DNA of 64,000 nt from Bdellovibrio sp. (GCA_036676395.1 JAKFCY010000002.1:2649132-2713131), one strand, 5' to 3'. Shown: positions 9,699-64,000, numbered from the stretch's first letter. Translations and numbers: made by a program. Notes: generated by a model not told the origin, from the letters alone.

Positions 9699-10288
9699 GA
9701 ACTCCACAGCTTCTGCCAGTGTACGACCGAAAGCCCACGTAAACGCATTTTCTGATAGGGAATAACTCCCGTGGCTTCTTTTTCATTAAGCTGAATATAA
9801 TTTCTTAATATCACATACCCACGCCACCCATGCACAACCCGGGTAAACGGCCGAAACAACCACAACTTCATCACCCGCTTTGCCGTTACTCCACGCTTCT
9901 CTGCTGGGGTATCGGTCACTTCGCGCAGTAGATTCTCTTTTTGCAGTTCTTGGGCGATTTGCCCTGCCACAACCCGCATAAAATAATGCGACATCGCCCT
10001 TCGTGGAACCCTAATGTTGAGATGAATATGATCGAAGTTAATCGAACACTGATCAATTTTGATAAAGAACCGTTTTGCATAACGATCAATAATACGCCGA
10101 ACTATTTTATACGACCGCGGAGATCGAAAATTCAGTTTCAGTGCTTTTTTATCGGCCTTAAAGACGACGTGATGAGGTTTTCGGGTTGAAAGCGGACGAA
10201 ACTTTCTGCCTTTACGTAGCTGGCGAAGGCTGCCACCGTGACTGTGTTTTAAGTTATATTTCTTAAGTGCGTGATTGATGTGACCCAT
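9695..10288 (-). mobile_element. REP-associated tyrosine transposase (RAYT)-like HUH/Y1 nuclease, 197 aa
   Basis: HUH motif NFDHIHL, LWLFRPFTRVV, and catalytic-Tyr motif YIQLN (YI..N as in RAYTs, versus YI..Q in IS200 TnpA). Surrounded by short repeats; no tnpB. Confidence 0.8.
9906..9919 (-). repeat. 14-bp motif copy 2, in-frame inside the HUH gene (encodes VTDTP)
   Basis: Exact GGGGTATCGGTCAC; degenerate inverted partner CCGTTACTCCA at 9883-9893. Confidence 0.85.
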
Positions 10289-10293
10289 ACCCC
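10280..10293 (+). repeat. 14-bp motif copy 3 (1 mismatch); contains the HUH gene start codon
   Basis: GTGACCCATACCCC; the single mismatch creates CAT, i.e. ATG on the minus strand. Confidence 0.75.
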
Positions 10294-10390
10294 AGGGCGG
10301 TGTTCAAGAAGTGGCGCTGGGTGAAAACTGATTCTATGGCAGGTAGAGCGATCGAAGATACGGGTATCGAATGTGCTGGTCCGAAAAAAC

Positions 10391-10425
10391 AAAAAGCCTA
10401 CGTTTCGTAAACGTAGGCTTTTTTT
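10391..10425. terminator. Intrinsic terminator-like hairpin (probably bidirectional)
   Basis: AAAAAGCCTACGTTT-cgt-AAACGTAGGCTTTTT perfect stem with A/T tails, downstream of the 10479-12515 gene. Confidence 0.85.
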
Positions 10426-10426
10426 G

Positions 10427-10440
10427 GTGACCGATACCCC
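10427..10440 (+). repeat. 14-bp motif copy 4
   Basis: Exact GTGACCGATACCCC abutting the terminator. Confidence 0.85.
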
Positions 10441-10478
10441 CAACACAACAACGACGTGGGGCTATGAGTTCCTTAAAA

Positions 10479-12515
10479 CTATTTTAAGTAAATATCTGTG
10501 TACGTCGTGTAAGTCGGACGTACCTTGGCAGAAATGTTTCTTGGGGCTAAACCCGGAAACTTCAACGCCATTCTAACCGGAATACCATCGTTTAACTGCG
10601 CGCGAGCCTGTTGGTTATTCGAATCTTTTGCCCATGCACGGCCTAAGTAGAACAATCTGATCACACGTGAATCAGCGTATTCTTTAACGATCGCGTATGA
10701 GTTTAACACTTCTCTTGAACGGTTAATTTGATTCGCATAAAGATCACCTGGATTATCCAAACGATTTTCTAAACGCGCCTTATCGTTACCTGTGTGCTTA
10801 GCAGTATTGTAACCGAAAGTAATGTTTTTCAAGATTTTTTCAGGAGATGACAAATCACCCGTGTACGATTTTGGTAATCTGATGTTCATCACTAATGCAT
10901 AAGAACCTAATTCATAACGAAGTTTTTCGTTTTCGTTATAACGATCAGAATCTAATTCTACGTTAAAATACTTATTCACTAAACGTTGGTTACAAGCGAT
11001 GCGGCCTGCTTCACAGTTCGTTAACGTCTCGATCACATGTTTAAAGTTTGGATGTTTACACGTTTCAGGAGCAGCGCACTCTTTATTCATGATCACAACA
11101 TCTACGCCAATTGATTTATCAAAGCTGTTGATCCCTTTTGCTAAAGCATCACCCACCGGAGCTAAAACTCCTGATAAACCATCGATTGCTGGCAACACTG
11201 TCGCATGCATGTTTTCAACAAAGATTTCGCGCGAAGGAATGTTTAAAGTACGTTGTAAATCAGCTGTGTTTACATAGCTAGTTTCTGCAACTGGTTTAGA
11301 TTCGTTACCTGGATTTTCTACATAGTATAAGAAATCTGCTGTAGCACCCGGGCTAAATACCGGACCATCTGTTTCGCGGCGTTTATGGCCAGAAAAAATA
11401 GTTACGAATTGTTCGTTAATTTTTCTTAAATTTTCAGATTGAAAACCCGTACAAGTAAGACCCGCATCAGTTTTACCTAAGCACGGAAAAACACCCACGA
11501 TGCTTGTCCAACGCGTGCGGTATTTTGTGCGGTATTGATCTAACATCAAATGAGAAATACGGTTTACACGCATTTCATTAATCACATCTGAAGTTAAACG
11601 CATATGATTCATTTCGCTAGGGTTAATGTTACCCACTGATTTCATCACTTTAGTTAAACCTGTCATCGCCAAACCAGGAACATTGTTAACATTTTTTACT
11701 ATGATGTTATTTGCAATCGCATTCACTGAAGCACAAGAAGCGATTAGACCATTTTTAACTGCGCGGTCATTCATTTCTTTTTGTGTGTAAACTTTATTTG
11801 GATCACCGAATAATTTTTCTTTAGCGCCAGTATATAAGTTAGATAAAAAACCTTTTCCTTCAGTGATGCTTTCAATCGACGGATCATCACAAAGCGCTTT
11901 GGCTTTAGGTAATAATTTATGAATTTCGGCTAAGTTACCTTTTTCAAGAAAAGACCAACCAAGTTCAGCATCTATAGAACCCCAGTAAACCGGGCCAAGA
12001 CCGACTATATTTTCAACGCGGGCTACATAGCTTTGAACTTTTTCTGCATCTTCAGCGTTGTACGCCATCGACGGATGGAATTTAAAGTTGAACATTGAAT
12101 CGTAGTACCAAGTCATCACCATTTGCCCACCCATTGAGTAAGCTAAAATAGAGATTTTGTCTTCTGGCCCTAGTTCAGGAATAAGCGGCTTAGCGCTGCC
12201 ATTACCTAAAATAAAATCTTTATTGAATTTATCAGCGATTAAATGCGGTTCCCAGTTAATTCCGGTTTTAGCATCATTAACTGCAGCACCTACCGGATAT
12301 GTCCAATTGAATAATTCATATTCGTAGGCCGGATCGATCTCTTTCAGAGTTTTTCCGACAAACGTGTGAAACTCACCGTAAGATTCTGCATTACCACGCA
12401 CGCCGTGCATTGTGATGATGTAATGTTTTTTAGTCGTAGAACTTGGTGAACGTAATCCCAAGTATGAACACGACGAGATGAATGCAACCAGCATTAGCGA
12501 TAGCAATAACTTCAT
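10479..12515 (-). CDS. Secreted lipoprotein with alpha/beta-hydrolase-like N-terminal motifs
   Basis: Lipobox ISSC; ITMHGVRG, nucleophile-elbow-like AYSMGG, LGPVYWGS and ETDGPV; 678 aa. Confidence 0.6.
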   Translation of the reverse strand: MKLLLSLMLVAFISSCSYLGLRSPSSTTKKHYIITMHGVRGNAESYGEFHTFVGKTLKEIDPAYEYELFNWTYPVGAAVNDAKTGINWEPHLIADKFNKDFILGNGSAKPLIPELGPEDKISILAYSMGGQMVMTWYYDSMFNFKFHPSMAYNAEDAEKVQSYVARVENIVGLGPVYWGSIDAELGWSFLEKGNLAEIHKLLPKAKALCDDPSIESITEGKGFLSNLYTGAKEKLFGDPNKVYTQKEMNDRAVKNGLIASCASVNAIANNIIVKNVNNVPGLAMTGLTKVMKSVGNINPSEMNHMRLTSDVINEMRVNRISHLMLDQYRTKYRTRWTSIVGVFPCLGKTDAGLTCTGFQSENLRKINEQFVTIFSGHKRRETDGPVFSPGATADFLYYVENPGNESKPVAETSYVNTADLQRTLNIPSREIFVENMHATVLPAIDGLSGVLAPVGDALAKGINSFDKSIGVDVVIMNKECAAPETCKHPNFKHVIETLTNCEAGRIACNQRLVNKYFNVELDSDRYNENEKLRYELGSYALVMNIRLPKSYTGDLSSPEKILKNITFGYNTAKHTGNDKARLENRLDNPGDLYANQINRSREVLNSYAIVKEYADSRVIRLFYLGRAWAKDSNNQQARAQLNDGIPVRMALKFPGLAPRNISAKVRPTYTTYTDIYLK

Positions 12516-43023: not shown

Positions 43024-43593
43024 ATGGTCGCACTGGACATGGTTTCTACAACCAGATCCCCGTTAGCTGATATAAGCACTAGCTTAAAAGCCTTGGTGTT
43101 AAACGCCAGCTACGAACCTTTACGCATAGTTTCTTGGCAAAAAGCCTTAATTCTTTGGTTCCAAGATAAAGTCGAAATTCTTGAATATCATAAAGCCTTT
43201 GTTAGCTCGGTCAGAGAAACCTTCGATTTACCCAGCGTGATGAAGCTTAAATCTTATGTCAGGCCCAAGAGAATCGACGGCGTTCGATTTTGTCGTGAAA
43301 ACGTTTACATCCGCGATAACTTCACTTGCCAATATTGTGTGAAAAAGTTTGCTCAAAAAGAACTCACAATCGATCACGTGCTGCCGGCTTCGCAAGGCGG
43401 CCCCAAGATTTGGACTAACGTTGTCTCTGCATGTCGTAAATGTAACCAAACAAAAGCTAACCGCACTCCTGAAAAAGCAGGGATGCCTTTACTGCGCCCA
43501 CCAAGGGTTCCAAGCTGGTTACCGGTTTTAGAGCACGAGATCCTGACCGAAAAAATTCCTGGCAGCTGGAAAGATTATTTAAGATTTAAGTAG
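43024..43593 (+). CDS. HNH endonuclease (McrA-like)
   Basis: LVLNASYEPL, RDNFTCQYC, TIDHVLP, WTNVVSACRKCN and KANRTP motifs. Confidence 0.92.
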   Translation: MVALDMVSTTRSPLADISTSLKALVLNASYEPLRIVSWQKALILWFQDKVEILEYHKAFVSSVRETFDLPSVMKLKSYVRPKRIDGVRFCRENVYIRDNFTCQYCVKKFAQKELTIDHVLPASQGGPKIWTNVVSACRKCNQTKANRTPEKAGMPLLRPPRVPSWLPVLEHEILTEKIPGSWKDYLRFK

Positions 43594-52845: not shown

Positions 52846-53253
52846 TTAGATACAGCAGACTAAGCGGTAAGCGACGCGAACTTCACTTAAGAAAAGATCA
52901 TTGCAAGCAGCATCACTCGTGACAGTTTTCTTGGTGTATTGCTCAACTTCACCACCGCACCCTGAAGGCTGACCGATTGCAACTGATCCTGGCGGACAAG
53001 TTACTGCAGCTTTTTGAGTATGAGTGCAAGTATAGACTTTGCTTGTAGCATCGTAACTATGACTCCAGTTACCAGTGCAGACACCTTGTACAACTAAAGC
53101 CTTGGGTTTGTCGGCAGGGCAAAGACCTGGATCGACTTTTTCCAGTTCGGTTTCTTCAATTAAACCAGGAATTACGCTAGCCACATAATCAGAAACTTTA
53201 GAGCAACCTACAGTTAGAAATAAAGCTAGTAGAAATACCGTGAACTTTATCAT
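52846..53253 (-). CDS. Small Cys-rich lipoprotein
   Basis: MIKFTVFLLALFLTVGC lipobox from ATG 53253 (ATGA overlap with the upstream ORF); 8 further Cys; ends VCCI. Confidence 0.7.
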   Translation of the reverse strand: MIKFTVFLLALFLTVGCSKVSDYVASVIPGLIEETELEKVDPGLCPADKPKALVVQGVCTGNWSHSYDATSKVYTCTHTQKAAVTCPPGSVAIGQPSGCGGEVEQYTKKTVTSDAACNDLFLSEVRVAYRLVCCI

Positions 53254-53462
53254 CTTGGCGACCTGACTAAACTTGGTCCGCACAACGGCCCCGTTGATAA
53301 TGGAGCTGAAGATAATGATAAATGTTGTTGGAATTCGATGACGACTTCTGGTTCAATTCTTGGCGCTAAATCAGACGATACAAGCTCTTCAGTATGCCCT
53401 TTAAAGACAAAACCTAAAATCGAAAGTTGCCCTATGATTTTTAAGAACTGGCGTCTAATCAT
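53250..53462 (-). CDS. 70-aa protein with a twin-arginine-like N-terminus
   Basis: MIRRQFLKIIGQLSILGF; fills the gap between coupled genes exactly. Confidence 0.55.
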   Translation of the reverse strand: MIRRQFLKIIGQLSILGFVFKGHTEELVSSDLAPRIEPEVVIEFQQHLSLSSAPLSTGPLCGPSLVRSPR

Positions 53463-53463
53463 G

Positions 53464-53772
53464 TTATTCGCCCTTCAACGCGTTGATACGTCTATTGTAG
53501 GCTTCAATGAATTCAGGTGGAAATTCTTTAATCTTATGGGTTTTAACAATACGGTCTAAGAAGAATTCCATTTTAAAATCTGCTGAAACGGCAAATTTTT
53601 TAAAATCAACATCTGTGCTGTTATCAATGATTGGCAACCAACCGGTACTAACGACAGACATTTGCGCCACTTCATTGTTTTTCAATTCTTTAGAGAAAAA
53701 GTTTTCAGGAAGTACCGCTGGCCCCTGAACGATTTTTCCGTCTTCTACGCGCGCGTGCATTTTAACTTTCAT
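53464..53772 (-). CDS. Hypothetical protein resembling phage tail-fibre accessory/assembly proteins
   Basis: HARVEDGKIVQGP..LP...GWLP pattern recalled from small proteins downstream of phage fibres; TAATG coupling. Confidence 0.5.
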   Translation of the reverse strand: MKVKMHARVEDGKIVQGPAVLPENFFSKELKNNEVAQMSVVSTGWLPIIDNSTDVDFKKFAVSADFKMEFFLDRIVKTHKIKEFPPEFIEAYNRRINALKGE

Positions 53773-54161
53773 TATAATGCTCCGTTCGCAAACATGGCCT
53801 GGCTTAAATGGTAATGAGGATCATCTGCAAAAGTTTTAACAAATTCATCAAAGAATATTTTTTTTCTGAAATCATTCCAGCGCAAAGCATACATCACTAA
53901 AACCTGAGCTATTTCAGGATCTGCCGTTAATTGCCGGATCCACATCTCTATGATATCCTGCGGAACAACATCTTGTAATTTATTAACTATAAAAATAAGT
54001 TCGGTGTTTCCTAATTTTGCGCCCTCACGAACTATTTTGTGAAATTCTTCTGAGTCTTTATCCGCGTATTTGTTCAGTAATAATACTGTAGAACAATCCA
54101 AATCAATTTGGAATCCGCGGTCTTGAGCCAATTTTAAATATTCTAAAGACTTCATAAGCAC
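53772..54161 (-). CDS. Hypothetical protein
   Basis: 129-aa ORF within the operon, coupled to its neighbours. Confidence 0.6.
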   Translation of the reverse strand: MLMKSLEYLKLAQDRGFQIDLDCSTVLLLNKYADKDSEEFHKIVREGAKLGNTELIFIVNKLQDVVPQDIIEMWIRQLTADPEIAQVLVMYALRWNDFRKKIFFDEFVKTFADDPHYHLSQAMFANGAL

Positions 54162-54168
54162 ATCATAT

Positions 54169-54822
54169 TTAATAAGTTATTGTTATCCGGCCAACAGCTC
54201 CATTTTTTGGAGCATTATTATTGATTGAACCTCCGCCGGCACCGCCGCCTGGCGCTGTTCCAGCACTTCCGGCATTTTTATTTCCATTACCGCCATTACC
54301 ACCGTTACCGCCCGTACCTGCGCCTGTTGGTCCGGCGGCATCACCGCCGTTACCACCATTTGTTGACTGCCCTGGTATTCCATTATTTCCGTTTACGTTA
54401 CACAAAGCTGGATCACCGTAATTACCTGAAGTTGCAATACCACCGACACCAGCAGTAGCGTTTTGTGATCCCGTTCCACCTGGTGCAGAACCACCATTAA
54501 ACGAAGTTGTTCCGCCAGTTCCAGCTAATCCGCCATCGACACCAGTCATGACGCCAGCTGCACCCACCGTATAAGCATAACCGACTCCGGGAACTACATA
54601 TGATACGTATCTACAAAAAGATCCGCCGCCTGCGCCGCCGACACCAGTAGTACTGCTTGCGCCAGCGCCTCCTCCGGCGCCCCACATTTGGGCTTGAACC
54701 ATCCAGATATTTGAAGTGGCTGCCGGAGTATAGGTTCCACTTGCAGCTGCATTAGTTACAGTAGTAGATCTGGTACCTTGTTTGTATTTGTTGCAGCACA
54801 TACGCGCGCGCATTGCCATCAT
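54169..54822 (-). CDS. Glycine-rich phage-tail-tip-like protein
   Basis: MWGAGGGAG, GGAGGGSF, YTVGAAG, GGTTSF, APGGGAGGG and GAVGRITITY motifs, typical of Gly-rich domains at phage fibre ends. Confidence 0.7.
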   Translation of the reverse strand: MMAMRARMCCNKYKQGTRSTTVTNAAASGTYTPAATSNIWMVQAQMWGAGGGAGASSTTGVGGAGGGSFCRYVSYVVPGVGYAYTVGAAGVMTGVDGGLAGTGGTTSFNGGSAPGGTGSQNATAGVGGIATSGNYGDPALCNVNGNNGIPGQSTNGGNGGDAAGPTGAGTGGNGGNGGNGNKNAGSAGTAPGGGAGGGSINNNAPKNGAVGRITITY

Positions 54823-54833
54823 AAATAATTCAC

Positions 54834-55499
54834 CTATCTACTATCGGCGCTGGCAAGCATGCCATGCCAAGTTGTACCGTTATCAACAGTCATGAAAGTT
54901 AAAATATCTACACCCGAATTTATAAGAGTCGGAACAATTGCATACGACCATTTAACAGAAGCAGGCCAATTGTTTGCGCCTGTACCTGTACCACCGTTTG
55001 TAAGAATTAAAGTAAATGAAACTGCACGATTTGCAGTAGAATTAACATTGGTGAAAGACCAAGTCGTCGCGGCATTTTTTGTTGCTGTAAAAACATTTCC
55101 TAATGACAAATCAAGTGCTCTTGCACCACCACCAACACCCAAAGCCGTTACGACTTCAGAATAATTCAACATGGCTGGTTGCTGCAAGTTTTGTCCGCGC
55201 CAGTTTGTAAAACGATCTGCGGGGGCAGTATTGAACACATATTTTGTGCCGACGCCGAAGTTCACTAATGCATTGGCATTCGAGCTGGCTAAAACTGTAT
55301 TTCTGACAAGCGTTGTTGCCGCCGACATATAACCGATACCAGTTTCCCAGTTCGCGTCATGGCTGATTACGTAGTAAAAAAGATTCGCGACACCAGTACT
55401 GAATGCTGTACTAAACGTTACATAACCCGTCACTGAGGCTGTAGTTAAATTTCCTGTACCTGTGGTTACTGTGGATTCCTGGACTCTATCTCTTAACAT
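54834..55499 (-). CDS. Short phage-tail-fibre-like protein
   Basis: N-terminus RDRVQESTVTTGTG...WETGIG...LVRNTVLASSN...VNFGVGTKYVF; C-terminus LDLSLGNVF...SFTLILT..WPASVKW..PTL..GVDILTF..DNGTTW; GAGG RBS. Confidence 0.7.
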   Translation of the reverse strand: MLRDRVQESTVTTGTGNLTTASVTGYVTFSTAFSTGVANLFYYVISHDANWETGIGYMSAATTLVRNTVLASSNANALVNFGVGTKYVFNTAPADRFTNWRGQNLQQPAMLNYSEVVTALGVGGGARALDLSLGNVFTATKNAATTWSFTNVNSTANRAVSFTLILTNGGTGTGANNWPASVKWSYAIVPTLINSGVDILTFMTVDNGTTWHGMLASADSR

Positions 55500-55602
55500 A
55501 GCAATACACCTCTACGAAATTCTGAACCAGAAGCATCGAGTTATGCAAAATCAGGATGAGATCTGAAAACTGAACTAGCCTATGGTCTAGATACGAAAAA
55601 TA

Positions 55603-58600
55603 CTAGCGACAGCATACATACTGACCATTTGGTGAAGCATTTATTCCTTTAAGAATTCTTACTCCTGATCCACCCGATGTCCAACACACAACACTCATCT
55701 CAGTTGCTGGGCCTTGCAATCCACCACCGGCAATTTTTGTAAAGTATTGGTTAGTCATTAAGTCAGTAGCAAGTCCGCCAATGTTCGCATCTTGGGCTTT
55801 AGCTCTGACGATTTCACTTAAACTGCAAAGATGTTTTTGCTGTAATTCACACGCCGTGATCGCCGAAGTCGCCACATCTTCTTGCGTGTAATCTAATAAA
55901 TTCGCAGCAGCGTTCGCATTTGTGTCGATACAGAATGTTTTGTGACCAGTAGCTGAACTACCTGTGACTAGTGTCATACCCGCAGGGCAATTCGCACCGA
56001 TCGCCGATGGATCAATCCAACTTGTTGTACCAGCGCCATCTGTTTGAAGAAGCATTCCTAAAGCACCCGATGAAGCTGGTAAAGTTAAATTATAAGTTGC
56101 TGTAGTCGCCGGAGCACGAACCGTGATTTCTCCTGAAATTGAACCTCTGAAAACACCTGTCAATTGACTGATCGCTCCTGCAATGAAACCACCAGAACCG
56201 TCACGTTTAACAATCGTACTTGCTGTATTTGCAGAAGTTGCAGCAATTGTATCACTTACGCTTTGTGAAATTTGTACCGCAGTTTTACCACCCACAGTCG
56301 CTACTGTGTTTGTTGCAATATTACCTGTTACATCACCAGCCATTGTCGGGATGTCTGAAGCAACGATTGATGTTCCGCTTGTAATGCGTCCGTAAATATC
56401 TACCGTTACTTTCGTGTATGTCGCTGCTGTCACACCTGTTGTTGCTAAACCTACAACCGGAGACGAAGTTGTTCCAGTAATTGCGATTTGACCAACTACA
56501 CCTGATACGGCTGTAACTTTATCGACGAATGATTGGTACTGCGTATTTGTAATCGCACCTTGTGTAACGCCCGTAGTTGCTGCCATCGGGAAATTAAATG
56601 TATGCACGCCATTCGCCGTCGACACAACAAACGAAGTGCCTGCTGAACCAGTCGCGAAAAGTTGCGTCGATGACACAGAACCATTCAATGAAGTCACTGC
56701 ACTGTAATTTGAAACTAATGTTTTCCAAATTCCAATACCAGCGTCGTAATATTCTAACGCTTTATTGGTCGTATTGTAAATTTGTAGACCATCTCTTGTT
56801 GCATCTACAGTGATCGTATCACGCTGTACAGTAGTCATTCGCGGAATCAAAATACCTTTAGTTGTTGAAACAATATCCAACATCGCTGAAGCGTTGTTCA
56901 CTGTAGTACCTAAACCAATTGTATTTGAAACAACTAATGACGGAGTCGTTAATAAACCAGTCATTGTATCTCCAGTAAGATTAACCGGAGTAAAACCTAA
57001 AGCTGAAGTCACATTTGAATTTGTTAATGAAATTTGCCCAGCACCATTTACAGTAATGTTACTTCCGATTGAAACAACACCAATATTAGTTGCATCTGCT
57101 ACGCGAAGAGTTTGCGATGAAACTGAAGTTAATCGACCGAAAGCATCTACTGTAATAATCGGAATCGTGAACGATGTACCGTAAGTCGCTGCAGTAACGC
57201 CACTATTTGCCAATCCGACTACTGGCGATGAAGTTGTTCCAGTAATCGCGATTTGACCAATTACACCTGATACCGTTGTAACTTTATCAACAAACGTTTG
57301 GTACTGAGTATTTGTAATTGCACCTTGAGTAACGCCCGTAGTTGCTGCCATCGGGATATTAAATGTGTGCACGCCATTCGCCGTCGATACAACAAACGAA
57401 GTGCCTGCTGAACCTGTTGCGAAAAGTTGCGTCGATGACACAGAACCATTCAATGAAGTAATTGCACTGTAATTTGAAACTAATGTTTTCCAAATTCCAA
57501 TACCACCATCGTAGTACTCAACCGCTTTATTATCAGTGTTGTAAATTTGTAGACCGTCTCTTGTTGCATCAACTGCAACTGTATTACGTTGAGCGGTAGT
57601 CATACGTGGAATCAAAATACCTTTTGTAACTGAAACGATATCTAACATCGCTGAAGCATTGATAGCTGCTGTTCCCAAACCAATTGTATTTGAAACAACT
57701 AATGAAGGAGTCGTCAATAAACCAGTCATTGTATCTCCAGCTAGATTAACCGGAGTAAAACCTAAAGCTGAAGTTACATTTGAATTCGTTAATGAAATTT
57801 GCCCAGCACCATTGACTGTAATGTTGCTTCCGATTGAAACAACACCTGTGTTTGTGGCATCTGCCACGCGTAAAGTTTGTGATGAAACTGAAGTTAAGCG
57901 ACCGAAAGCATCTACTGTAATAATCGGAATCGTGAATGATGTACCGTAAGTCGCAGCTGCAACTCCTGTTGTTGCTAAACCTACTACTGGCGAAGAAGTT
58001 GTTCCAGTAATCGCGATCTGACCAACTACGCCTGATACAGTCGTAACTTTGTCTACAAATGATTGGTATTGCGTATTCGTGATCGCACCTTGAGCAACAC
58101 CCACAGTTGAAGCCATCGGGATATTAAATGTATGGTTACCGTTCGCAGTTACAACATTAAACGAAGTACCCGCTGAACCTGTTGTGAAAGTTTGCGTTGA
58201 AGATGTCGAACCATTAATTGAAGTCACCGCACTGTAATCAGTTGCGATCGATTTCCATGCTGAAGCTGTCGTATCGTAGTACTGGAAAGCACCGATATCA
58301 GTATTGTAAATTTGAATACCATTTGAAGTCGTAACACTTCCACGCTGAGCTGTCGTCATGCGAGGAATTAAAATACCTTTATCAATTGATGAGATTTCAA
58401 AAATTGCACCGGCAGTTATCGAAGCCGTACCGATACCCACTGTATTAGATACCACTAATGATGGAGTCGTTAATAAACCAGTCATTGTATCACCAGCTCT
58501 GTTAACCGGAACATAACCTAAAGCTGAAGTCACATTTGAATTTGTTAATGAAATCTCGCCAGCACCATTTACCGTAATGTTACTTCCTATTGAAACAACG

Positions 58601-61600
58601 CCAGTGTTAGTTGCATCAGCTACACGAAGAGTTTGTGACGAAACCGAAGTTAAGCGGCCAAATGCATCTACTGTAATGATCGGAATTGTGAATGATGTTC
58701 CGTAAGTCGCAGCCGAAACTCCGGTTGTTGCTAAACCTACAACCGGAGACGAAGTCGTTCCCGTAATTGCGATTTGACCAACTACACCTGATACTGTCGT
58801 AACTTTATCAACAAACGTTTGATACTGAGCATTTGTAATCGCACCTTGCGTAACGCCCGTAGTTGCTGCCATCGGGATATTAAATGCATGCGTACCATTT
58901 GCTGTAACGATGCTAAACGAAGTACCCGCTGAACCTGTTGTGAAAGTTTGTGTTGAAGATGTTGAACCGTTAATCGAAGTCACCGCACTGTAATCAGTTG
59001 CGATCGATTTCCATGCTGAAGCTGTCGTATCGTAGTACTGGAAAGCACCGATATCAGTATTGTAAATTTGAATACCGTTTGAAGTCGTAACACTTCCACG
59101 CTGAGCTGTCGTCATGCGAGGAATTAAAATACCTTTATCAATTGATGAGATTTCAAAAATTGCACCGGCAGTTACCGAAGCCGTACCGATACCCACTGTG
59201 TTTGAAACAACTAATGATGGAGTCGTTAATAAACCAGTCATTGTATCGCCAGCACGATTAACCGGAACATAACCTAAAGCTGAAGTTACATTTGAATTCG
59301 TTAATGAAATCTCGCCAGCACCATTTACTGTGATGTTACTTCCAATTGAAACAACACCCGTGTTCGTCGCATCAGCTACGCGAAGAGTTTGTGATGAAAC
59401 TGAAGTTAAGCGGCCAAATGCATCTACTGTAATAATCGGGATTGTGAACGATGTTCCGTATGTAGCAGCTGTTACGCCGCTGTTTGCTAAACCGATCACC
59501 GGAGCTGATGCCGGACCAGTCACTGTGATTGGAGCTGTCGATGAAACTGCTCCGCCTGGTGCGAAACCTAAAGCTGCCGTTATGTCAGATGATGCTAATT
59601 GTGAACCGCTTGTAACACGGCCTTTACCATCTACAGTTACTTTCGTGTATTGTGTTCCGCTGGTTACGCCAGCGCCTACAGAAATTAACTGTAAGTTACC
59701 AGTGTTTGACATTGTCGCATCGCCATTCATGTAAACAGCCGTTGCAACACCAGAAGCATTACCTACGAACATTGTGCCACTGGCAATTGCCGCGCTCATG
59801 ATCGGAACCCAAGTTGTCTGAACCATACCCGCAGTTGCAGAAGAAATACCTAATGCATAACCTGCAGGTGGAACCACACCGTTATTCGGTAAAATGATGT
59901 CGTAGTTCGGCGTACCGATTGGCGTGAAGATACCTATTGAATTTGTTAAACCATTTTGAATACGTAAGTTACGTTGTACAGTCATATCCTGTACTGTCGT
60001 GATGTTATTTGCGATGAAGTTACCATTAGAATCGCGGCGTACAATTGTACCACTTGAATTTTGATCAGTAGCATTGATTGTATCACTTACACTTTGTGAA
60101 ATTTGCGCAGAAGTTTTTTCGCCCACTGTAGCTACAACAGTTGCTGAAAGTGAACCGGTTACATCACCTGATAAAGAGGCCCCTAAGGCTGTGATCACGT
60201 TACCGCTAGTGATTGAAATTACACCCGCAGTTACAGTGATATTATCACCAACTTGCACAACGCCGTTTTCAGTAGTTGATGCAGAACGAAGAGCTGCTGA
60301 TGTTACGCCAGTTGTACGCCCGAAAGCGTCTACAGTTACAACCGGAACAGTTGCTGAAGAACCGAATGTTCCTGCCGTTGCCCCGCTATTGGCCAAACCG
60401 ATTACTGGAGTTGAAACGCCACCTGTGATCACGATTTGACCCACAACACCTGATACTGCAGTTACTTTATCAACGAATGATTGGAATTCAGTATTTGTAA
60501 TCGCACCCTGAATTACTCCAGCACTTGCTGCCATCGGGAAGTTAAATGTATGTAATCCATTTACAGTTGCAACCGCAAAAGATGTTCCTGCTGAACCTGT
60601 GGCAAAAACTTGTGTTGCAGAAGTTGATCCATTTAATGAAGTGATAGCGCCTGAATTGTTTAAAACAGTTTTCCAGTCACTGTCTGCGCTGTCGTAATAC
60701 TGGATTGTTTTGTTATCCGTATTGTAAATTTGTAGACCATCAGTTGTCGCACCAGAAACGATAGCATTACGTTGCGCTGTCGTCATACGCGGAATCAAGA
60801 TACCTTTTGTAGTCGATGCGATATCTAAAATTGCTGAAGCATTTGCAGCTGCAGTTCCAAGGGCAATTGTGTTCGATACTACTAATGAAGGAGTAGTTAA
60901 TTCACCAGTCATTGTATCGCCGGCAAGATTTACCGGAATAAAACCTAACGCTGAAGTTACATTTGAATTTGTTAATGAAATTTGGCCAGCACCATTTACA
61001 GTGATGTTACTTCCGATTGAAACAACACCCGTGTTTGTTGCATCAGCTACGCGTAAAGATTCTGAAGTTACTGATGTGATACGTCCAAAAACATCTACTG
61101 TGATGATCGGCATTGTTCCAGAAGCCCCGTAAGTCGCCGCGGTTACGCCACTGTTTGCCATACCGATGACAGAATTCGATGCGCCACCTGTTACCGTTAA
61201 CGGTGCTGTAGCCGAAATTACTCCGCTTGGAGTGTAGCCTAAAGCTGAAATCACATCTGCAGAATTTAATTGGGCACCACTTGTTACGCGGCCTTTACCA
61301 TCAACAGTTACTTTCGTGTATTGCGCCCCAGAAGTTACATTTGCACCGACACTAGAAAGAGTCAGTTCACCTGTATTTGATAAAGTGGCATCACCTGAAA
61401 GAAGGACTCCCACCGCAGAACCTGATGCGCTACCCACATAAATATGAGCACTTGATAACATATCTGTTAATACATTAGCCCAACGAGTGGCGATCACAGT
61501 TCCTGTTGAGCCTGAAGCTACCGCTAATACTTGGCCCACTGTTGGTGCAACGGCATTGCTTGGTAGTACGATATCATAACTTGGCGTAGCAATCGGCGTT

Positions 61601-64000
61601 GTGATACCGATGTAATTTGTCATTCCATTTTGTACACGCAAGTTACGTTGTACGGTCATATCTTGCACTGTTGTGATGTTATTCGCAGAAAAATCACCGT
61701 TATTATCACGGCGTACAATTGTTGAACTAGAATTTAAATGAGTTGCCGTGATTGTATCACTTACACTTTGTGAAATCTGTGCTGCAGTTTTTCCACCCAC
61801 AGTTTGTACTATAGTTGCATCTAGTGTTCCTGATACATCGCCACCTAAAGATCCTACGGCTGCGATCACGTTACCACTTGTGACTGAAATTGTTCCGGCA
61901 GATAAAGTAATGTTTGAACCAATTTGTACGATACCTTTTGAACCAGCTGTTGCATCTGCATAAGCTTGTGCAGTTGCTGAAGTAATTCTACCCCAGGCAT
62001 CAACAACAAAATTTGGAATCAACGTATCAGAACCGTAAGAACCGGCAGTTACACCGCTGTTTGCTAAAGTAATTACCGGTTGCGAACTTGTTCCAGTTAA
62101 TACGATTGGCGCTGCTGCTGACACTATACCAACAGGAGTGTAACCTAAACCTGTAACTACATCAGCAAAAGCTAAATCGCTTCCGCTTGTTACACGGCCC
62201 CAAAGATCTACTGATACTTTTGGATATGTTCCTGATGTTACTCCGCTAAACGCTAAACCAATCGTTGGATTTGATGAGCCACCAGTTAAGGTAATTGGTG
62301 AAGTTGATGAAACCGAACTCATTGGTAAATAACCTAACGCGGCTACGATATCTGCATTATCTAACTGTGCACCACTTGTTACACGGCCTTTACCATCAAC
62401 TGTAACTTTCGTGTATTGAGAGCCAGAGACCACGCCTGCGAAATCCAGTAAGCGGGCGTCAGCGATAATACCGGTAGCACTTGCGCTTCCTAAATCAACA
62501 AAGTCTGCAGTTGCAAATGTGCCTAAACCTAAATTTGTACGTGCCGTAGCACTTGAAGCTAAATCATTTAAGTTGTTAGCTCTTCTTAAGAATGTTCCAG
62601 AGACAGCATCATCCATTGGTGTATAACCTAGGCCGGTAGTGATATCTGTGAATGCTAAATTACTTCCGCTTGTTACGCGACCCCAGATATCAACTGAAAC
62701 TTTTGGATATGTTCCTGAAATTACACCTGAAATATCTAAACTGATCATTGGATTAGATACACCGCCCGTGATTGATAACGGAGAAGACACACTGACTGAA
62801 TTCATTGGTGTGTAACCTAAACCTGTTGTGATATCGGCAACGTTTAAATCGCTTCCGCTAGTTACGCGGCCCCAAAGATCTACTGATACTTTCGGATATG
62901 TTCCTGAAGTTACACCTGAATTTGCTAAACTGATGACTGGATTTGAGGCCGTGCCGGTTAAAACTAACGGCGTCGCCGCTGAAACACTAGCTACTGGTGA
63001 ATACCCTAAACCTGTTGTCACATCTGTAAAATCTAAATTACTTCCGCTTGTTACACGACCCCAAAGATCAACAGACACTTTCGGATATGTTCCTGAAGTC
63101 ACACCACTGGAAGCTAAACCGATTATTGGATTTGATGCCCCACCAGTTAATGTAATCGGTGAAGTTGATGAAACCGAACTCATTGGTGCAAAACCCAAAG
63201 CTGTTACGATATCTGCATTATCTAACTGGGCACCGCTTGTTACGCGGCCTTTACCATCTACTGTTAATTTCGTGTATTGAGTTCCCGAAGTTACATTTGA
63301 AAAATCTTGCAATCTTGCATCAGCGATAATTCCTGTAGCCGATGCACTGCCAAGATCAACAGTATCTGCTGTTGCGAATGTTCCTAAACCTAAATTTGTA
63401 CGAGCTGTAGCTGAAGAAGTTAAATCACTTAAATTATTTGCTCTGCGCACGTAAGTACCTGAAGCGGCATCATCAGCCGGTGTATAGCCTAAAGCTGTCA
63501 CTACATCTAAAGCAGCTAATTGACCACCACTGACTACGCGGCCTTTACCATCAACCGTAACTTTCGTATATTCAGTACCCGAAGTTACATTTGCGCCAAC
63601 ATTGACTAATTGCAAACTACCAGAACTAGACATTGTCGCATCGCCGGTAACTTGCATACCGACGGCTGCACCAGAAACACTACCTACGAAAATGTAACCT
63701 GGATTTAACATGTCTGTTAATGTGCTATACCAACGAGTGGCGATCACAGTTCCTGTTGAACCTGAAGCCACCGCTAAAACCTGGCCCACTGTTGGTGGCA
63801 CCGCATTGTTTGGTAAAATAATATCGTAATTAGGTGTTGCGATCGGTGTTGTAATACCGATGTAATTTGCCATGCCGTTTTGTACACGTAAGTTACGTTG
63901 TACAGTCATATCCTGAACTGTCGTGATGTTATTCGCCGTAAAGTCACCGTTGTTATCACGACGTACTATTGTTGAACTAGAATTTAAATGAGTTGCATTG
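55603..64000 (-). CDS. Giant repetitive phage-tail-fibre-like adhesin (5' end beyond the window)
   Basis: Frame is open to the window edge (...NATHLNSSSTIVRRDNNGDF...). Repeated YTKVTVDGKGRVTSG, NNLSDL..ATARTNLGLG and KGILIPRMTTAQR..GLQIYNT motifs; Cys-rich C-terminal domain. Confidence 0.88.
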   Translation of the reverse strand, partial: NATHLNSSSTIVRRDNNGDFTANNITTVQDMTVQRNLRVQNGMANYIGITTPIATPNYDIILPNNAVPPTVGQVLAVASGSTGTVIATRWYSTLTDMLNPGYIFVGSVSGAAVGMQVTGDATMSSSGSLQLVNVGANVTSGTEYTKVTVDGKGRVVSGGQLAALDVVTALGYTPADDAASGTYVRRANNLSDLTSSATARTNLGLGTFATADTVDLGSASATGIIADARLQDFSNVTSGTQYTKLTVDGKGRVTSGAQLDNADIVTALGFAPMSSVSSTSPITLTGGASNPIIGLASSGVTSGTYPKVSVDLWGRVTSGSNLDFTDVTTGLGYSPVASVSAATPLVLTGTASNPVISLANSGVTSGTYPKVSVDLWGRVTSGSDLNVADITTGLGYTPMNSVSVSSPLSITGGVSNPMISLDISGVISGTYPKVSVDIWGRVTSGSNLAFTDITTGLGYTPMDDAVSGTFLRRANNLNDLASSATARTNLGLGTFATADFVDLGSASATGIIADARLLDFAGVVSGSQYTKVTVDGKGRVTSGAQLDNADIVAALGYLPMSSVSSTSPITLTGGSSNPTIGLAFSGVTSGTYPKVSVDLWGRVTSGSDLAFADVVTGLGYTPVGIVSAAAPIVLTGTSSQPVITLANSGVTAGSYGSDTLIPNFVVDAWGRITSATAQAYADATAGSKGIVQIGSNITLSAGTISVTSGNVIAAVGSLGGDVSGTLDATIVQTVGGKTAAQISQSVSDTITATHLNSSSTIVRRDNNGDFSANNITTVQDMTVQRNLRVQNGMTNYIGITTPIATPSYDIVLPSNAVAPTVGQVLAVASGSTGTVIATRWANVLTDMLSSAHIYVGSASGSAVGVLLSGDATLSNTGELTLSSVGANVTSGAQYTKVTVDGKGRVTSGAQLNSADVISALGYTPSGVISATAPLTVTGGASNSVIGMANSGVTAATYGASGTMPIITVDVFGRITSVTSESLRVADATNTGVVSIGSNITVNGAGQISLTNSNVTSALGFIPVNLAGDTMTGELTTPSLVVSNTIALGTAAANASAILDIASTTKGILIPRMTTAQRNAIVSGATTDGLQIYNTDNKTIQYYDSADSDWKTVLNNSGAITSLNGSTSATQVFATGSAGTSFAVATVNGLHTFNFPMAASAGVIQGAITNTEFQSFVDKVTAVSGVVGQIVITGGVSTPVIGLANSGATAGTFGSSATVPVVTVDAFGRTTGVTSAALRSASTTENGVVQVGDNITVTAGVISITSGNVITALGASLSGDVTGSLSATVVATVGEKTSAQISQSVSDTINATDQNSSGTIVRRDSNGNFIANNITTVQDMTVQRNLRIQNGLTNSIGIFTPIGTPNYDIILPNNGVVPPAGYALGISSATAGMVQTTWVPIMSAAIASGTMFVGNASGVATAVYMNGDATMSNTGNLQLISVGAGVTSGTQYTKVTVDGKGRVTSGSQLASSDITAALGFAPGGAVSSTAPITVTGPASAPVIGLANSGVTAATYGTSFTIPIITVDAFGRLTSVSSQTLRVADATNTGVVSIGSNITVNGAGEISLTNSNVTSALGYVPVNRAGDTMTGLLTTPSLVVSNTVGIGTASVTAGAIFEISSIDKGILIPRMTTAQRGSVTTSNGIQIYNTDIGAFQYYDTTASAWKSIATDYSAVTSINGSTSSTQTFTTGSAGTSFSIVTANGTHAFNIPMAATTGVTQGAITNAQYQTFVDKVTTVSGVVGQIAITGTTSSPVVGLATTGVSAATYGTSFTIPIITVDAFGRLTSVSSQTLRVADATNTGVVSIGSNITVNGAGEISLTNSNVTSALGYVPVNRAGDTMTGLLTTPSLVVSNTVGIGTASITAGAIFEISSIDKGILIPRMTTAQRGSVTTSNGIQIYNTDIGAFQYYDTTASAWKSIATDYSAVTSINGSTSSTQTFTTGSAGTSFNVVTANGNHTFNIPMASTVGVAQGAITNTQYQSFVDKVTTVSGVVGQIAITGTTSSPVVGLATTGVAAATYGTSFTIPIITVDAFGRLTSVSSQTLRVADATNTGVVSIGSNITVNGAGQISLTNSNVTSALGFTPVNLAGDTMTGLLTTPSLVVSNTIGLGTAAINASAMLDIVSVTKGILIPRMTTAQRNTVAVDATRDGLQIYNTDNKAVEYYDGGIGIWKTLVSNYSAITSLNGSVSSTQLFATGSAGTSFVVSTANGVHTFNIPMAATTGVTQGAITNTQYQTFVDKVTTVSGVIGQIAITGTTSSPVVGLANSGVTAATYGTSFTIPIITVDAFGRLTSVSSQTLRVADATNIGVVSIGSNITVNGAGQISLTNSNVTSALGFTPVNLTGDTMTGLLTTPSLVVSNTIGLGTTVNNASAMLDIVSTTKGILIPRMTTVQRDTITVDATRDGLQIYNTTNKALEYYDAGIGIWKTLVSNYSAVTSLNGSVSSTQLFATGSAGTSFVVSTANGVHTFNFPMAATTGVTQGAITNTQYQSFVDKVTAVSGVVGQIAITGTTSSPVVGLATTGVTAATYTKVTVDIYGRITSGTSIVASDIPTMAGDVTGNIATNTVATVGGKTAVQISQSVSDTIAATSANTASTIVKRDGSGGFIAGAISQLTGVFRGSISGEITVRAPATTATYNLTLPASSGALGMLLQTDGAGTTSWIDPSAIGANCPAGMTLVTGSSATGHKTFCIDTNANAAANLLDYTQEDVATSAITACELQQKHLCSLSEIVRAKAQDANIGGLATDLMTNQYFTKIAGGGLQGPATEMSVVCWTSGGSGVRILKGINASPNGQYVCCR
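56420..59480 (-). repeat. Four tandem 756-765-bp intragenic repeat units (252-255 aa); boundaries approximate
   Basis: IPRM Met codons at 59113, 58357, 57601 and 56836 (spacings 756, 756, 765); a fifth copy at 60784. Confidence 0.9.
62620..63190 (-). repeat. Tandem 189-bp (63-aa) intragenic repeats; boundaries approximate
   Basis: GGATATGTTCCTGA (SGTYP) at 63083, 62894 and 62705 (period 189), plus a copy at 62222. Confidence 0.85.

Follow-up and report, generated by a model that had tools for sequence, protein, structure and literature searches.

The window analysed here, a stretch of 64,000 nucleotides of Bdellovibrio sp. DNA, is the last 64 kb of contig C2 of the genome and ends inside a giant fibre gene that is truncated by the assembly. 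We place the fibre among the mosaic adhesive trimer (MAT) proteins. Its gene is followed on the same strand by a cassette of six small genes, o221, o217, o129, o102, o70 and o145, the first two of which encode proteins of phage origin. The features of this locus, from the window end downstream along the minus strand, are the following:

55603-64000, minus strand: giant MAT-family fibre, C-terminal 2,798 aa, translated with no start codon required and open at the window end
55500-55602, minus strand: spacer of 103 nt that separates the fibre gene from o221 and has a GAGG ribosome-binding site ahead of the ATG
54834-55499, minus strand: o221, phage-type short fibre or adaptor of 221 aa (PHROG, BFVD and AlphaFold2 (AF2) model)
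54169-54822, minus strand: o217, TNF-like plus glycine-rich (TG) receptor-binding protein of 217 aa (AF2 model and structure match)
53772-54161, minus strand: o129, conserved protein of unassigned family, a possible assembly factor by position (intact in the sister species G018)
53464-53772, minus strand: o102, weakly like phage tail-fibre assembly proteins (Atlas and HMM leads)
53250-53462, minus strand: o70, 70 aa with a consensus Tat signal (sequence motif)
52846-53253 from an ATG, or to 53283 from a GTG, minus strand: o145, cysteine-rich lipoprotein (lipoprotein signal)

The first-pass annotation of the window had described a fibre gene of more than 2,790 codons and six tightly packed genes behind it, and all seven open reading frames (ORFs) lie at the minus-strand positions it gave. 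Read from the sequence, the junctions measure 103 nt between the fibre gene and o221, followed by 11 nt, 7 nt, TAATG, 1 nt and ATGA, the last being the overlap of the o70 stop with the o145 start; the five tight junctions agree with that description, to which the 103-nt gap has to be added. A simple scan of the spacer found no terminator-like or promoter-like site in it. A convergent gene ends 10 nt past o145.

The giant fibre and its genomic setting

Only the end of C2 and the start of contig C3 carry fibre sequence that runs off the contig, and their orientations match. C3:1-3555 (locus L001) encodes 1,185 aa of fibre, which begin with a signal peptide recognised by inspection (MINLTSHINRLFIALLFFAPLLANA, with Q following the cleavage point) and match the NCBIfam model NF053851 (Bdello_MAT_N) over residues 23-171 with 68.2 bits against a cut-off of 60. 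This is most likely the N-terminal part of the fibre encoded in the window. The two halves stop and start at different points of one repeat unit, so that the sequence lost between C2 and C3 amounts to about 35 residues at the least and may include whole repeats. Given this probable join, the fibre would be a MAT protein of at least 3,983 aa, and its earlier description as a Bdellovibrio-type, phage-fibre-like adhesin gains from the fact that the probable N-terminal part passes the MAT N-domain model and carries a signal peptide.

The genome holds 23 matches to the MAT N-domain, 20 of them above cut-off, and the giant gene is the longest among them, the other open frames reaching up to 2,695 aa. 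Its N-domain is divergent: it scores 72 bits, whereas 18 paralogues reach 142-173. By motif counts, the strongly repetitive shaft contains five copies of a GDTMTG...GILIPRMTT unit of about 250 aa; a self-BLAST of the fibre halves, linked by X, gave no alignments. Six stretches of the fibre match the PHROG tail-fibre family phrog_7389 (1.5e-19), and it is on such sequence grounds that a trimeric shaft is predicted. At window positions 56420-57200, contigs from two other samples, X17 (an RNA library) and X4 (DNA), contain joints that go back 765 and 759 nt, respectively, which is consistent with an extra fibre repeat copy of about 765 nt in other populations or with a repeat collapsed in the assembly. 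The last 130 aa contain 7 cysteines and form the C-terminal tip, for which neither a Pfam family nor a PDB sequence match was found (last ~130 aa). No S74 family is among the fibre's Pfam hits at E<=0.01. With this and the cysteine-rich tip, the fibre counts, as judged from sequence, as a non-S74 MAT under the criteria set out by Caulton et al. 2024.

The giant MAT gene is preceded by the gene of a 375-aa lipoprotein that overlaps its start (L001, that is G000:C3, 3552-4679, minus strand). Besides the giant MAT, two others show such an overlap of a lipoprotein stop with the MAT start, one elsewhere in this genome and one in G471 (lipoprotein at L113 5105-5758), an uncultured Bdellovibrio from another genus of the same family. 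Additionally, the MATs with divergent N-domains (five of the 23 matches, below 80 bits) adjoin lipoprotein genes (G000:C2 near 2130682 and at 2461176-2469270). The MAT-coupled lipoproteins may be what anchors the MAT N-domain at the surface. Two further genes lie upstream of the lipoprotein-MAT pair (L001 6272-8020 and 4921-6234, minus strand). The product of one is a TPR lipoprotein that matches, below threshold, the TPR repeats of surface-lipoprotein assembly modulators (27.6 against 35.2 bits); that of the other is a secreted protein of 437 aa with weak LysM similarity.

The claim that the window contains no capsid, terminase, integrase or lysis genes holds in Pfam scans: 41 other window ORFs encode flagellar, Mla, GlmS/GlmU, signalling and other housekeeping proteins, and no gene of those four kinds was found in them or in the three ORFs nearest the cluster. 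The only ORF of a type that mobile elements often carry as well encodes an HNH endonuclease (43024-43593, plus strand; HNH_5, 63.9 bits), and it stands alone among housekeeping genes about 9 kb from the cassette. The first-pass annotation had also proposed that the sequence beyond position 64000 be inspected for a signal peptide or for phage genes; the signal peptide and Bdello_MAT_N are what the probable continuation on C3 holds, and the first 20 kb of C3 (10 ORFs, including a lipoprotein, a TPR protein, histidine kinases and a metalloprotease) contain no capsid, sheath or baseplate gene. Finally, PF04984 (Phage_sheath_1), PF04865 (Baseplate_J) and PF05065 (HK97-type Phage_capsid) are absent from the 99.3%-complete genome and were matched in control genomes; the marker search was made up of these three families, and terminases, portals, non-HK97 capsids and non-contractile tails lay outside it. 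The locus thus lacks a prophage or tailocin context in the window, in the first 20 kb of C3 and in the genome marker searches. These results bear on a reading in which the cluster supplies the fibres of a particle resembling a phage tail (a tailocin, contractile injection system or prophage) whose genes lie in another part of the genome. In phages, proteins like o221 presumably attach to the virion by their N-terminal part, as such a reading would have it; with sheath, baseplate and HK97-type capsid missing from the genome within the range of that search, we consider it highly improbable.

The knob protein, the glycine-rich head and their phage relatives

The o221 protein matches PHROG tail-fibre families, among them phrog_9017 at 3.5e-17, and its AF2 model (pLDDT 88) has a beta-barrel at the N-terminus (residues 4-93) and, at the C-terminus, a knob formed by residues 112-220 (the conserved knob region being residues about 108-221). 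When compared with BFVD, this model matched 243 viral models at E<=1e-3, the best of them a phage protein of 227 aa aligned over approximately its whole length (232 alignment columns). A PDB sequence search with the o221 alignment gave nothing useful, and the folds matched in the PDB are middling: the Pa223 capsid spike (Z 7.6), the KP1 baseplate (Z 7.3) and the N-terminal region of CBA120 TSP4 (Z 6.0). The resemblance of the modelled knob to the docking domains of TSP4 is only a hint. The knob itself is very common, with 746 homologous proteins and 585 viral-contig matches. Taken together, these comparisons show that o221 is of phage origin and combines a beta-barrel domain with a conserved, widespread knob.

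The AF2 model of o217 (pLDDT 84, pTM 0.80) superposes on residues 73-274 of the Pam3 fibre (7ypx_A) with a VIA Z of 21.5, a root-mean-square deviation of 2.1 A over 184 residues and 30% identity, and Foldseek finds the same chain at E 5.5e-8. It also matches the Bxb1 tail-tip protein 9d93_Qa (Z 16.1) and the glycine-rich domains of ALK/LTK (Z about 8). At the sequence level, o217 scores 24.2 bits with Pfam Gly_rich_2, whose cut-off is 24.3, and 10 of the 14 distant sequence relatives scanned pass that cut-off; a PDB sequence search with o217 gave nothing useful, and a literature search on the Bxb1 tail-tip glycine-rich proteins likewise. These results show that o217 is of phage origin and has the TNF-like plus glycine-rich binding head of Pam3 gp24. 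In PMC9608196, these gp24 domains are described as recognising the host and an N-terminal helical domain as the docking element. That helical domain is missing from o217: model and chain align only from residues 17 and 73 onwards, respectively, and the stretch of o217 ahead of this is just about 17 residues long and modelled with low confidence. Hence o217 corresponds to the head fold and not to a complete gp24-type fibre.

The 217-aa product had been likened to the T-even gp38 adhesin. What survives of that likeness is a glycine-rich receptor-binding module encoded after a fibre gene; the nearest structure is Pam3 gp24, since gp38 is matched only weakly (Z 2.6-2.8 over 61-67 residues with 6f45_D and 9v85_C, against 21.5). 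The first 40 residues of o217 are its most conserved part, including an N-terminal segment of 24 residues, and two loop regions are the most variable. A conserved N-terminal Cys-Cys was considered and rejected, as two of four homologues have Ala-Cys in its place. An HMM of the o217 family detected no second copy in the genome and nothing in the G471, G466, G470, G030 and G478 loci.

The arrangement of the two genes was examined in 115 knob-gene loci drawn from 80 viral and 49 genomic loci. An ORF directly downstream of the knob gene was present in 103 of them and contains at least 18% glycine in 30; of 91 upstream ORFs, only one does. Twenty-five of these 30 ORFs were scanned with Gly_rich_2 (three truncated and two duplicate ones were left out) and 13 passed. 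When starts were called by a second procedure, an MPLG(A/S)-type peptide stood at the beginning of 43 of 109 downstream ORFs, and many others share similar short starts (ML-A-x-R-M-R... or MT-I-R-D-L-L-M...) whatever their C-terminal domain; by eye, the o217 start MMAMRARM... resembles this second group. The order of knob gene, then glycine-rich gene, is thereby shown to recur in phages, and we infer that the knob offers a docking site into which the product of the following gene plugs with its N-terminal peptide. A complex prediction of three o221 chains with o217 gave a median of 0.36 and one control 0.22, a gap below the required 0.20. The literature searched, which covered journals other than subscription ones, yielded no description of such a knob module, and no paper on PF21722 was found.

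Searches with phmmer for all six small proteins in the 80 viral loci recovered only relatives of o221, and in the 49 genomic loci only relatives of o221 plus one weak match of o102. Sixteen of these 49 genomic loci (L086-L134) come from episymbiotic or predatory lineages: 12 from CPR (candidate phyla radiation)/Patescibacteria, three from Woesearchaeota (DPANN) and one from Bdellovibrio. In the family, the phage-like contig L143 (G466:C112, 7.9 kb) of a 69%-complete metagenome-assembled genome (MAG) encodes a knob, a Phage Tail Collar protein (85 bits) and further products on the same strand, and this knob is probably in a real phage context.

Helper candidates, export signals and conservation of the cassette

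The products of the four remaining genes are small, and o102 is the one with phage-like leads. In the Atlas it lies closest to clusters of viral proteins roughly 100 aa long (0.91-0.92), and the nearest named one is Caudo_TAP (0.85). An HMM built from 12 members of the o102 family weakly matches the ORF immediately behind the knob gene in two unrelated loci, L098 (E 0.0064) and L020 (E 0.045), with a visible GKIV-GP-VLP correspondence. Of its 11 homologues, four lie on contigs equal in size to those carrying o221 or o217 homologues. Neither o102 nor two of its homologues matches a Pfam or PHROG family, and we do not file it under Caudo_TAP or the tail-fibre assembly (TFA) proteins. Its sequence leads suggest that o102 may work like a TFA, so that of the earlier label "fibre-accessory-like" the weak Atlas and HMM resemblance stands and membership in a family profile does not. 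For o129 there was no Pfam, PHROG or NCBIfam match, its Atlas scores are at most 0.82, and no relatives were detected beyond the cluster.

The o70 product starts with MIRRQFLK, followed by the hydrophobic stretch IIGQLSILGFVF, and thus has the consensus Tat signal that its designation as a Tat-like microprotein implied. The strict motif RRxF[LIVM]K occurs 10 times in 10,696 six-frame ORFs of the genome, and only three times is it N-terminal and accompanied by a hydrophobic region, namely in o70 and in two large proteins that are typical substrates of the Tat pathway. TatC is encoded in the genome (236.9 bits). The last gene encodes, as had been annotated, a cysteine-rich lipoprotein: o145 has a lipoprotein signal (MIKFTVFLLALFLTVG, then C), 10 cysteines and a C-terminal VCCI, and no family match in Pfam, PHROG or NCBIfam. 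Homology between o145 and the fibre tip on account of their shared VCC ends was considered and rejected (BLASTP E 0.82). Within the cassette, export signals are confined to o70 (Tat) and o145 (lipoprotein), and the fibre itself has a Sec signal.

Knob proteins with their own signals exist elsewhere. That of L100, a Woesearchaeota MAG contig of 1,644 bp, contains the consensus Tat motif GRRDFIKAG, and that of L122 (7743-9334, a Vicinamibacterales MAG) a Sec-like signal; the latter is followed by a protein of 317 aa with 33% glycine and a signal-like start. Alongside o70, these tagged proteins suggest that cell-encoded knob modules are exported, in this case possibly by the Tat pathway with o70 as the carrier.

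The cassette is maintained. In the sister species G018, which shares 95.8% DNA identity over 9.3 kb, the six small ORFs are intact and free of indels, with dN/dS of 0.07-0.18 (o129 0.07, o70 0.07, o145 0.14) and, summed over the six, 55.5 synonymous against 26.5 non-synonymous differences, a pattern of substitutions that shows purifying selection on all of them. Full-length homologues are present in metagenomes for o221 (45-86% identity), o217 (74-77%) and o102 (59-97%). Judged from equal contig sizes, homologues of the small genes share contigs of 1,698, 3,628, 4,344, 40,467 and 147,401 bp, those of 1,698 and 147,401 bp being common to o221 and o217, which suggests that the cluster has been kept together across metagenome assemblies. 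Two other metagenome scans for o221 relatives found none, and neither did a first profile scan of genome contigs with an alignment of close o221 relatives. A DNA contig of 1,225 nt from an independent soil sample extends from the o217 start through o221 and the spacer into the end of the fibre gene. In two metatranscriptome libraries, short contigs span the junctions o221/o217, o217/o129 and o102/o70, and one (X17, 55509-55725) covers the 3' end of the fibre gene and most of the spacer.

This conservation speaks to the idea that the cluster is a decaying phage remnant, in which o221 to o102 would be functionless leftovers of a prophage tail fibre and o70 and o145 unrelated small genes. Such a remnant would account for the phage type of o221 and o217, for their missing signal peptides and for the rarity of the cassette in the genus. 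Against it stand the six ORFs intact in two species at the dN/dS values above, full-length homologues 55-89% identical, several of them sharing contigs, the tight or overlapping junctions, the RNA-library contigs on the locus, and the lack of any other phage gene within 52 kb on one side and 20 kb on the other. We therefore regard a remnant as very unlikely.

Fibre and cassette as a proposed unit, and comparison with known systems

A second genome places the same kinds of genes side by side. On one strand of locus L113, G471 encodes a glycine-rich protein of 591 aa, a lipoprotein, a MAT of 662 aa and, after 23 nt, a knob protein. The lipoprotein stop overlaps the MAT start, and the MAT matches Bdello_MAT_N at 105.5 bits. 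The knob protein has 219 aa, is 35% identical to o221 over its residues 67-221 and carries a Tat-like signal (..ARRKLFGILPGAVIGLLFVNRAEA, then G); its gene is followed by that of a DUF7483 virion-type protein, and the flanks are chromosomal. The glycine-rich protein of 591 aa (L113 3179-4954) and the DUF7483 protein of 650 aa (9752-11704) have nearly identical starts (MTIREILMTAAS and MTIRDLLMSASV, respectively), as if both plugged into the same partner. Fibre fragments whose shaft motifs are shared by the MATs of the present genome terminate in a knob-like domain; this is seen in G470 and weakly in G478 and G030.

We lean slightly towards the view that the locus is one operon-like unit of a Bdellovibrionaceae predator, in which a giant, Sec-exported MAT fibre has been joined to a domesticated phage receptor-binding module. 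In this explanation, o217 would dock by its conserved N-terminal segment on the o221 knob to form a two-part adhesin, and o102, and perhaps o129, would assist its cytoplasmic folding in the manner of phage fibre chaperones. As neither o221 nor o217 has a signal peptide, we propose that the folded complex would leave the cytoplasm via the Tat pathway with the help of o70. It could then be held at the envelope by the lipoprotein o145 or by the fibre, and complex and fibre would together serve the recognition of a target, presumably the prey. The first-pass annotation had likewise proposed a multi-subunit appendage; this idea is strengthened by the second genome, G471, that links MAT, knob and glycine-rich genes, and weakened by the absence (by inspection) of signal peptides from o221 and o217 next to a Sec-exported fibre.

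Several observations weigh against this explanation. The join of the fibre halves across two contigs is a probable one and the attachment of o221/o217 to the giant fibre a putative one; just as well, the two proteins could form a two-part adhesin of their own, with co-expression as their only link to the fibre. The fibre has a C-terminal tip domain of its own and so needs no added tip. Neither o221 nor o217 has a signal peptide, o70 lacks an obvious AxA cleavage site, and the chaperone role of o102, with its E-values of 0.006 and 0.045 and an Atlas match, is no more than a lead. Between o217 and the glycine-rich proteins of G471 and G478, BLASTP and HMM showed no significant similarity, and the parallel rests on composition and one shared weak PHROG match. 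The six genes are single-copy, with no paralogues at the other 22 MAT loci of the genome. Beyond it, o221 is found in one of 51 other genomes of the genus, the knob in 6 of 181 other genomes of the family and neither in any of 400 other genomes sampled from the phylum; this rarity indicates that the cassette is accessory, probably recently acquired, and not a general feature of MATs. The metatranscriptome contigs, lastly, are only a hint of expression, as DNA can be present in such libraries.

Some of these points would fit a self-contained, horizontally acquired, phage-derived two-part adhesin with its own chaperones, Tat escort and anchor, co-transcribed with the fibre and never touching it. 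The patchy distribution in the genus, the tip domain of the fibre, the signal-bearing, cell-encoded knobs with no MAT nearby (such as those of L100 and L122) and the export and anchor elements that the cassette brings along all suit such a neighbour. It accounts less well for the recurrence of MAT-knob adjacency in a divergent genome whose knob is only 35% identical, for the knob-like domains fused to MAT-like fibre ends in three other genomes of the family, and for a spacer of just 103 nt without a predicted terminator. We judge it a serious but less probable account of the locus than the operon-like unit of fibre and module. A bolder form of the latter, which we think rather doubtful, would make the locus a phage complex turned into a cell-surface device, folded inside the cell by chaperones of phage style, exported in folded form by Tat with o70 as escort and docked on a MAT, and hence the first multi-subunit, tip-exchangeable MAT appendage; a Tat signal is fused to the knob protein itself in the sister lineage (G471) and in the DPANN archaeon (L100).

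The fibre itself is a very long new member of a known family. What is new is the coupled, phage-derived cassette, with its adaptor, binding head, probable helpers, Tat microprotein and lipoprotein, and its recurrence beside a MAT in a second lineage. The anchoring of MATs and the diversification of their specificity are questions to which the locus offers testable candidates: the lipoprotein genes coupled to the divergent MAT subclass are possible anchors, and a separate phage-derived binding head could be swapped without rebuilding a fibre of 4,000 aa. The locus suggests that MAT fibres can work with separately encoded parts and that cells adopting phage fibre parts may solve the export problem via the Tat pathway. 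More generally, the phage loci point to a module made of a conserved knob and a partner with a conserved N-terminal peptide, and such parts could serve the engineering of predator or phage host range with laboratory strains.

The proposed export step has a counterpart in Tat hitchhiker co-export, in which a partner without a signal leaves together with a subunit that has a Tat signal, as in E. coli hydrogenase 2. The cassette is similar in that a Tat signal on one small product stands beside signal-less proteins that would fold in the cytoplasm; it differs in that the known hitchhikers are subunits of redox enzymes, whereas here they would be phage-type fibre proteins, and we know of no hitchhiker case with such proteins.

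Among phages, the closest system is Pam3 gp24 (PDB 7YPX), with which o217 shares the TNF-like plus glycine-rich fold and the small genes that follow, as gp25 follows gp24. According to PMC9608196, gp24 needs the chaperone gp25, which is absent from the virion; that gp25 is encoded next to gp24 is our inference from the gene numbers. Unlike gp24, o217 has a short, conserved, basic peptide in place of the helical domain that docks on the baseplate, no homologue of gp25 or of the Mu TFA is detectable by HMM, and the host is a bacterium without a phage tail. With gp37-gp38 of T-even phages and S16 (PDB 6F45; PMC12032242) the locus shares the order of a conserved fibre end and a separate glycine-rich adhesin gene. 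This is an analogy and not membership, as o217 matches gp38 weakly and o221 is no homologue of gp37.

As far as the consulted sections of PMC10769870 go, MATs have a signal peptide, a conserved, beta-rich N-terminal domain of about 130 aa, a phage-fibre-like shaft and an S74 or variable tip, were described in 2024 as single-chain trimers, and number 21 in B. bacteriovorus HD100, with a non-S74 subgroup that includes Bd2133, Bd2439 and Bd2740. The same sections, two supplementary files and the consulted part of a 2026 review treat them as single-gene fibres and make no mention of accessory subunits. The giant fibre resembles the HD100 proteins in its signal peptide, N-domain, fibre-like shaft, non-S74 tip and many paralogues (23 matches against 21 MATs). 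It differs from them in length, at least 3,983 aa given the probable join, against 626, 627 and 843 aa for HD100 MATs that are among the shorter ones (PMC10769870, same sections), and in being flanked by a coupled lipoprotein gene upstream and a cassette of six genes downstream.

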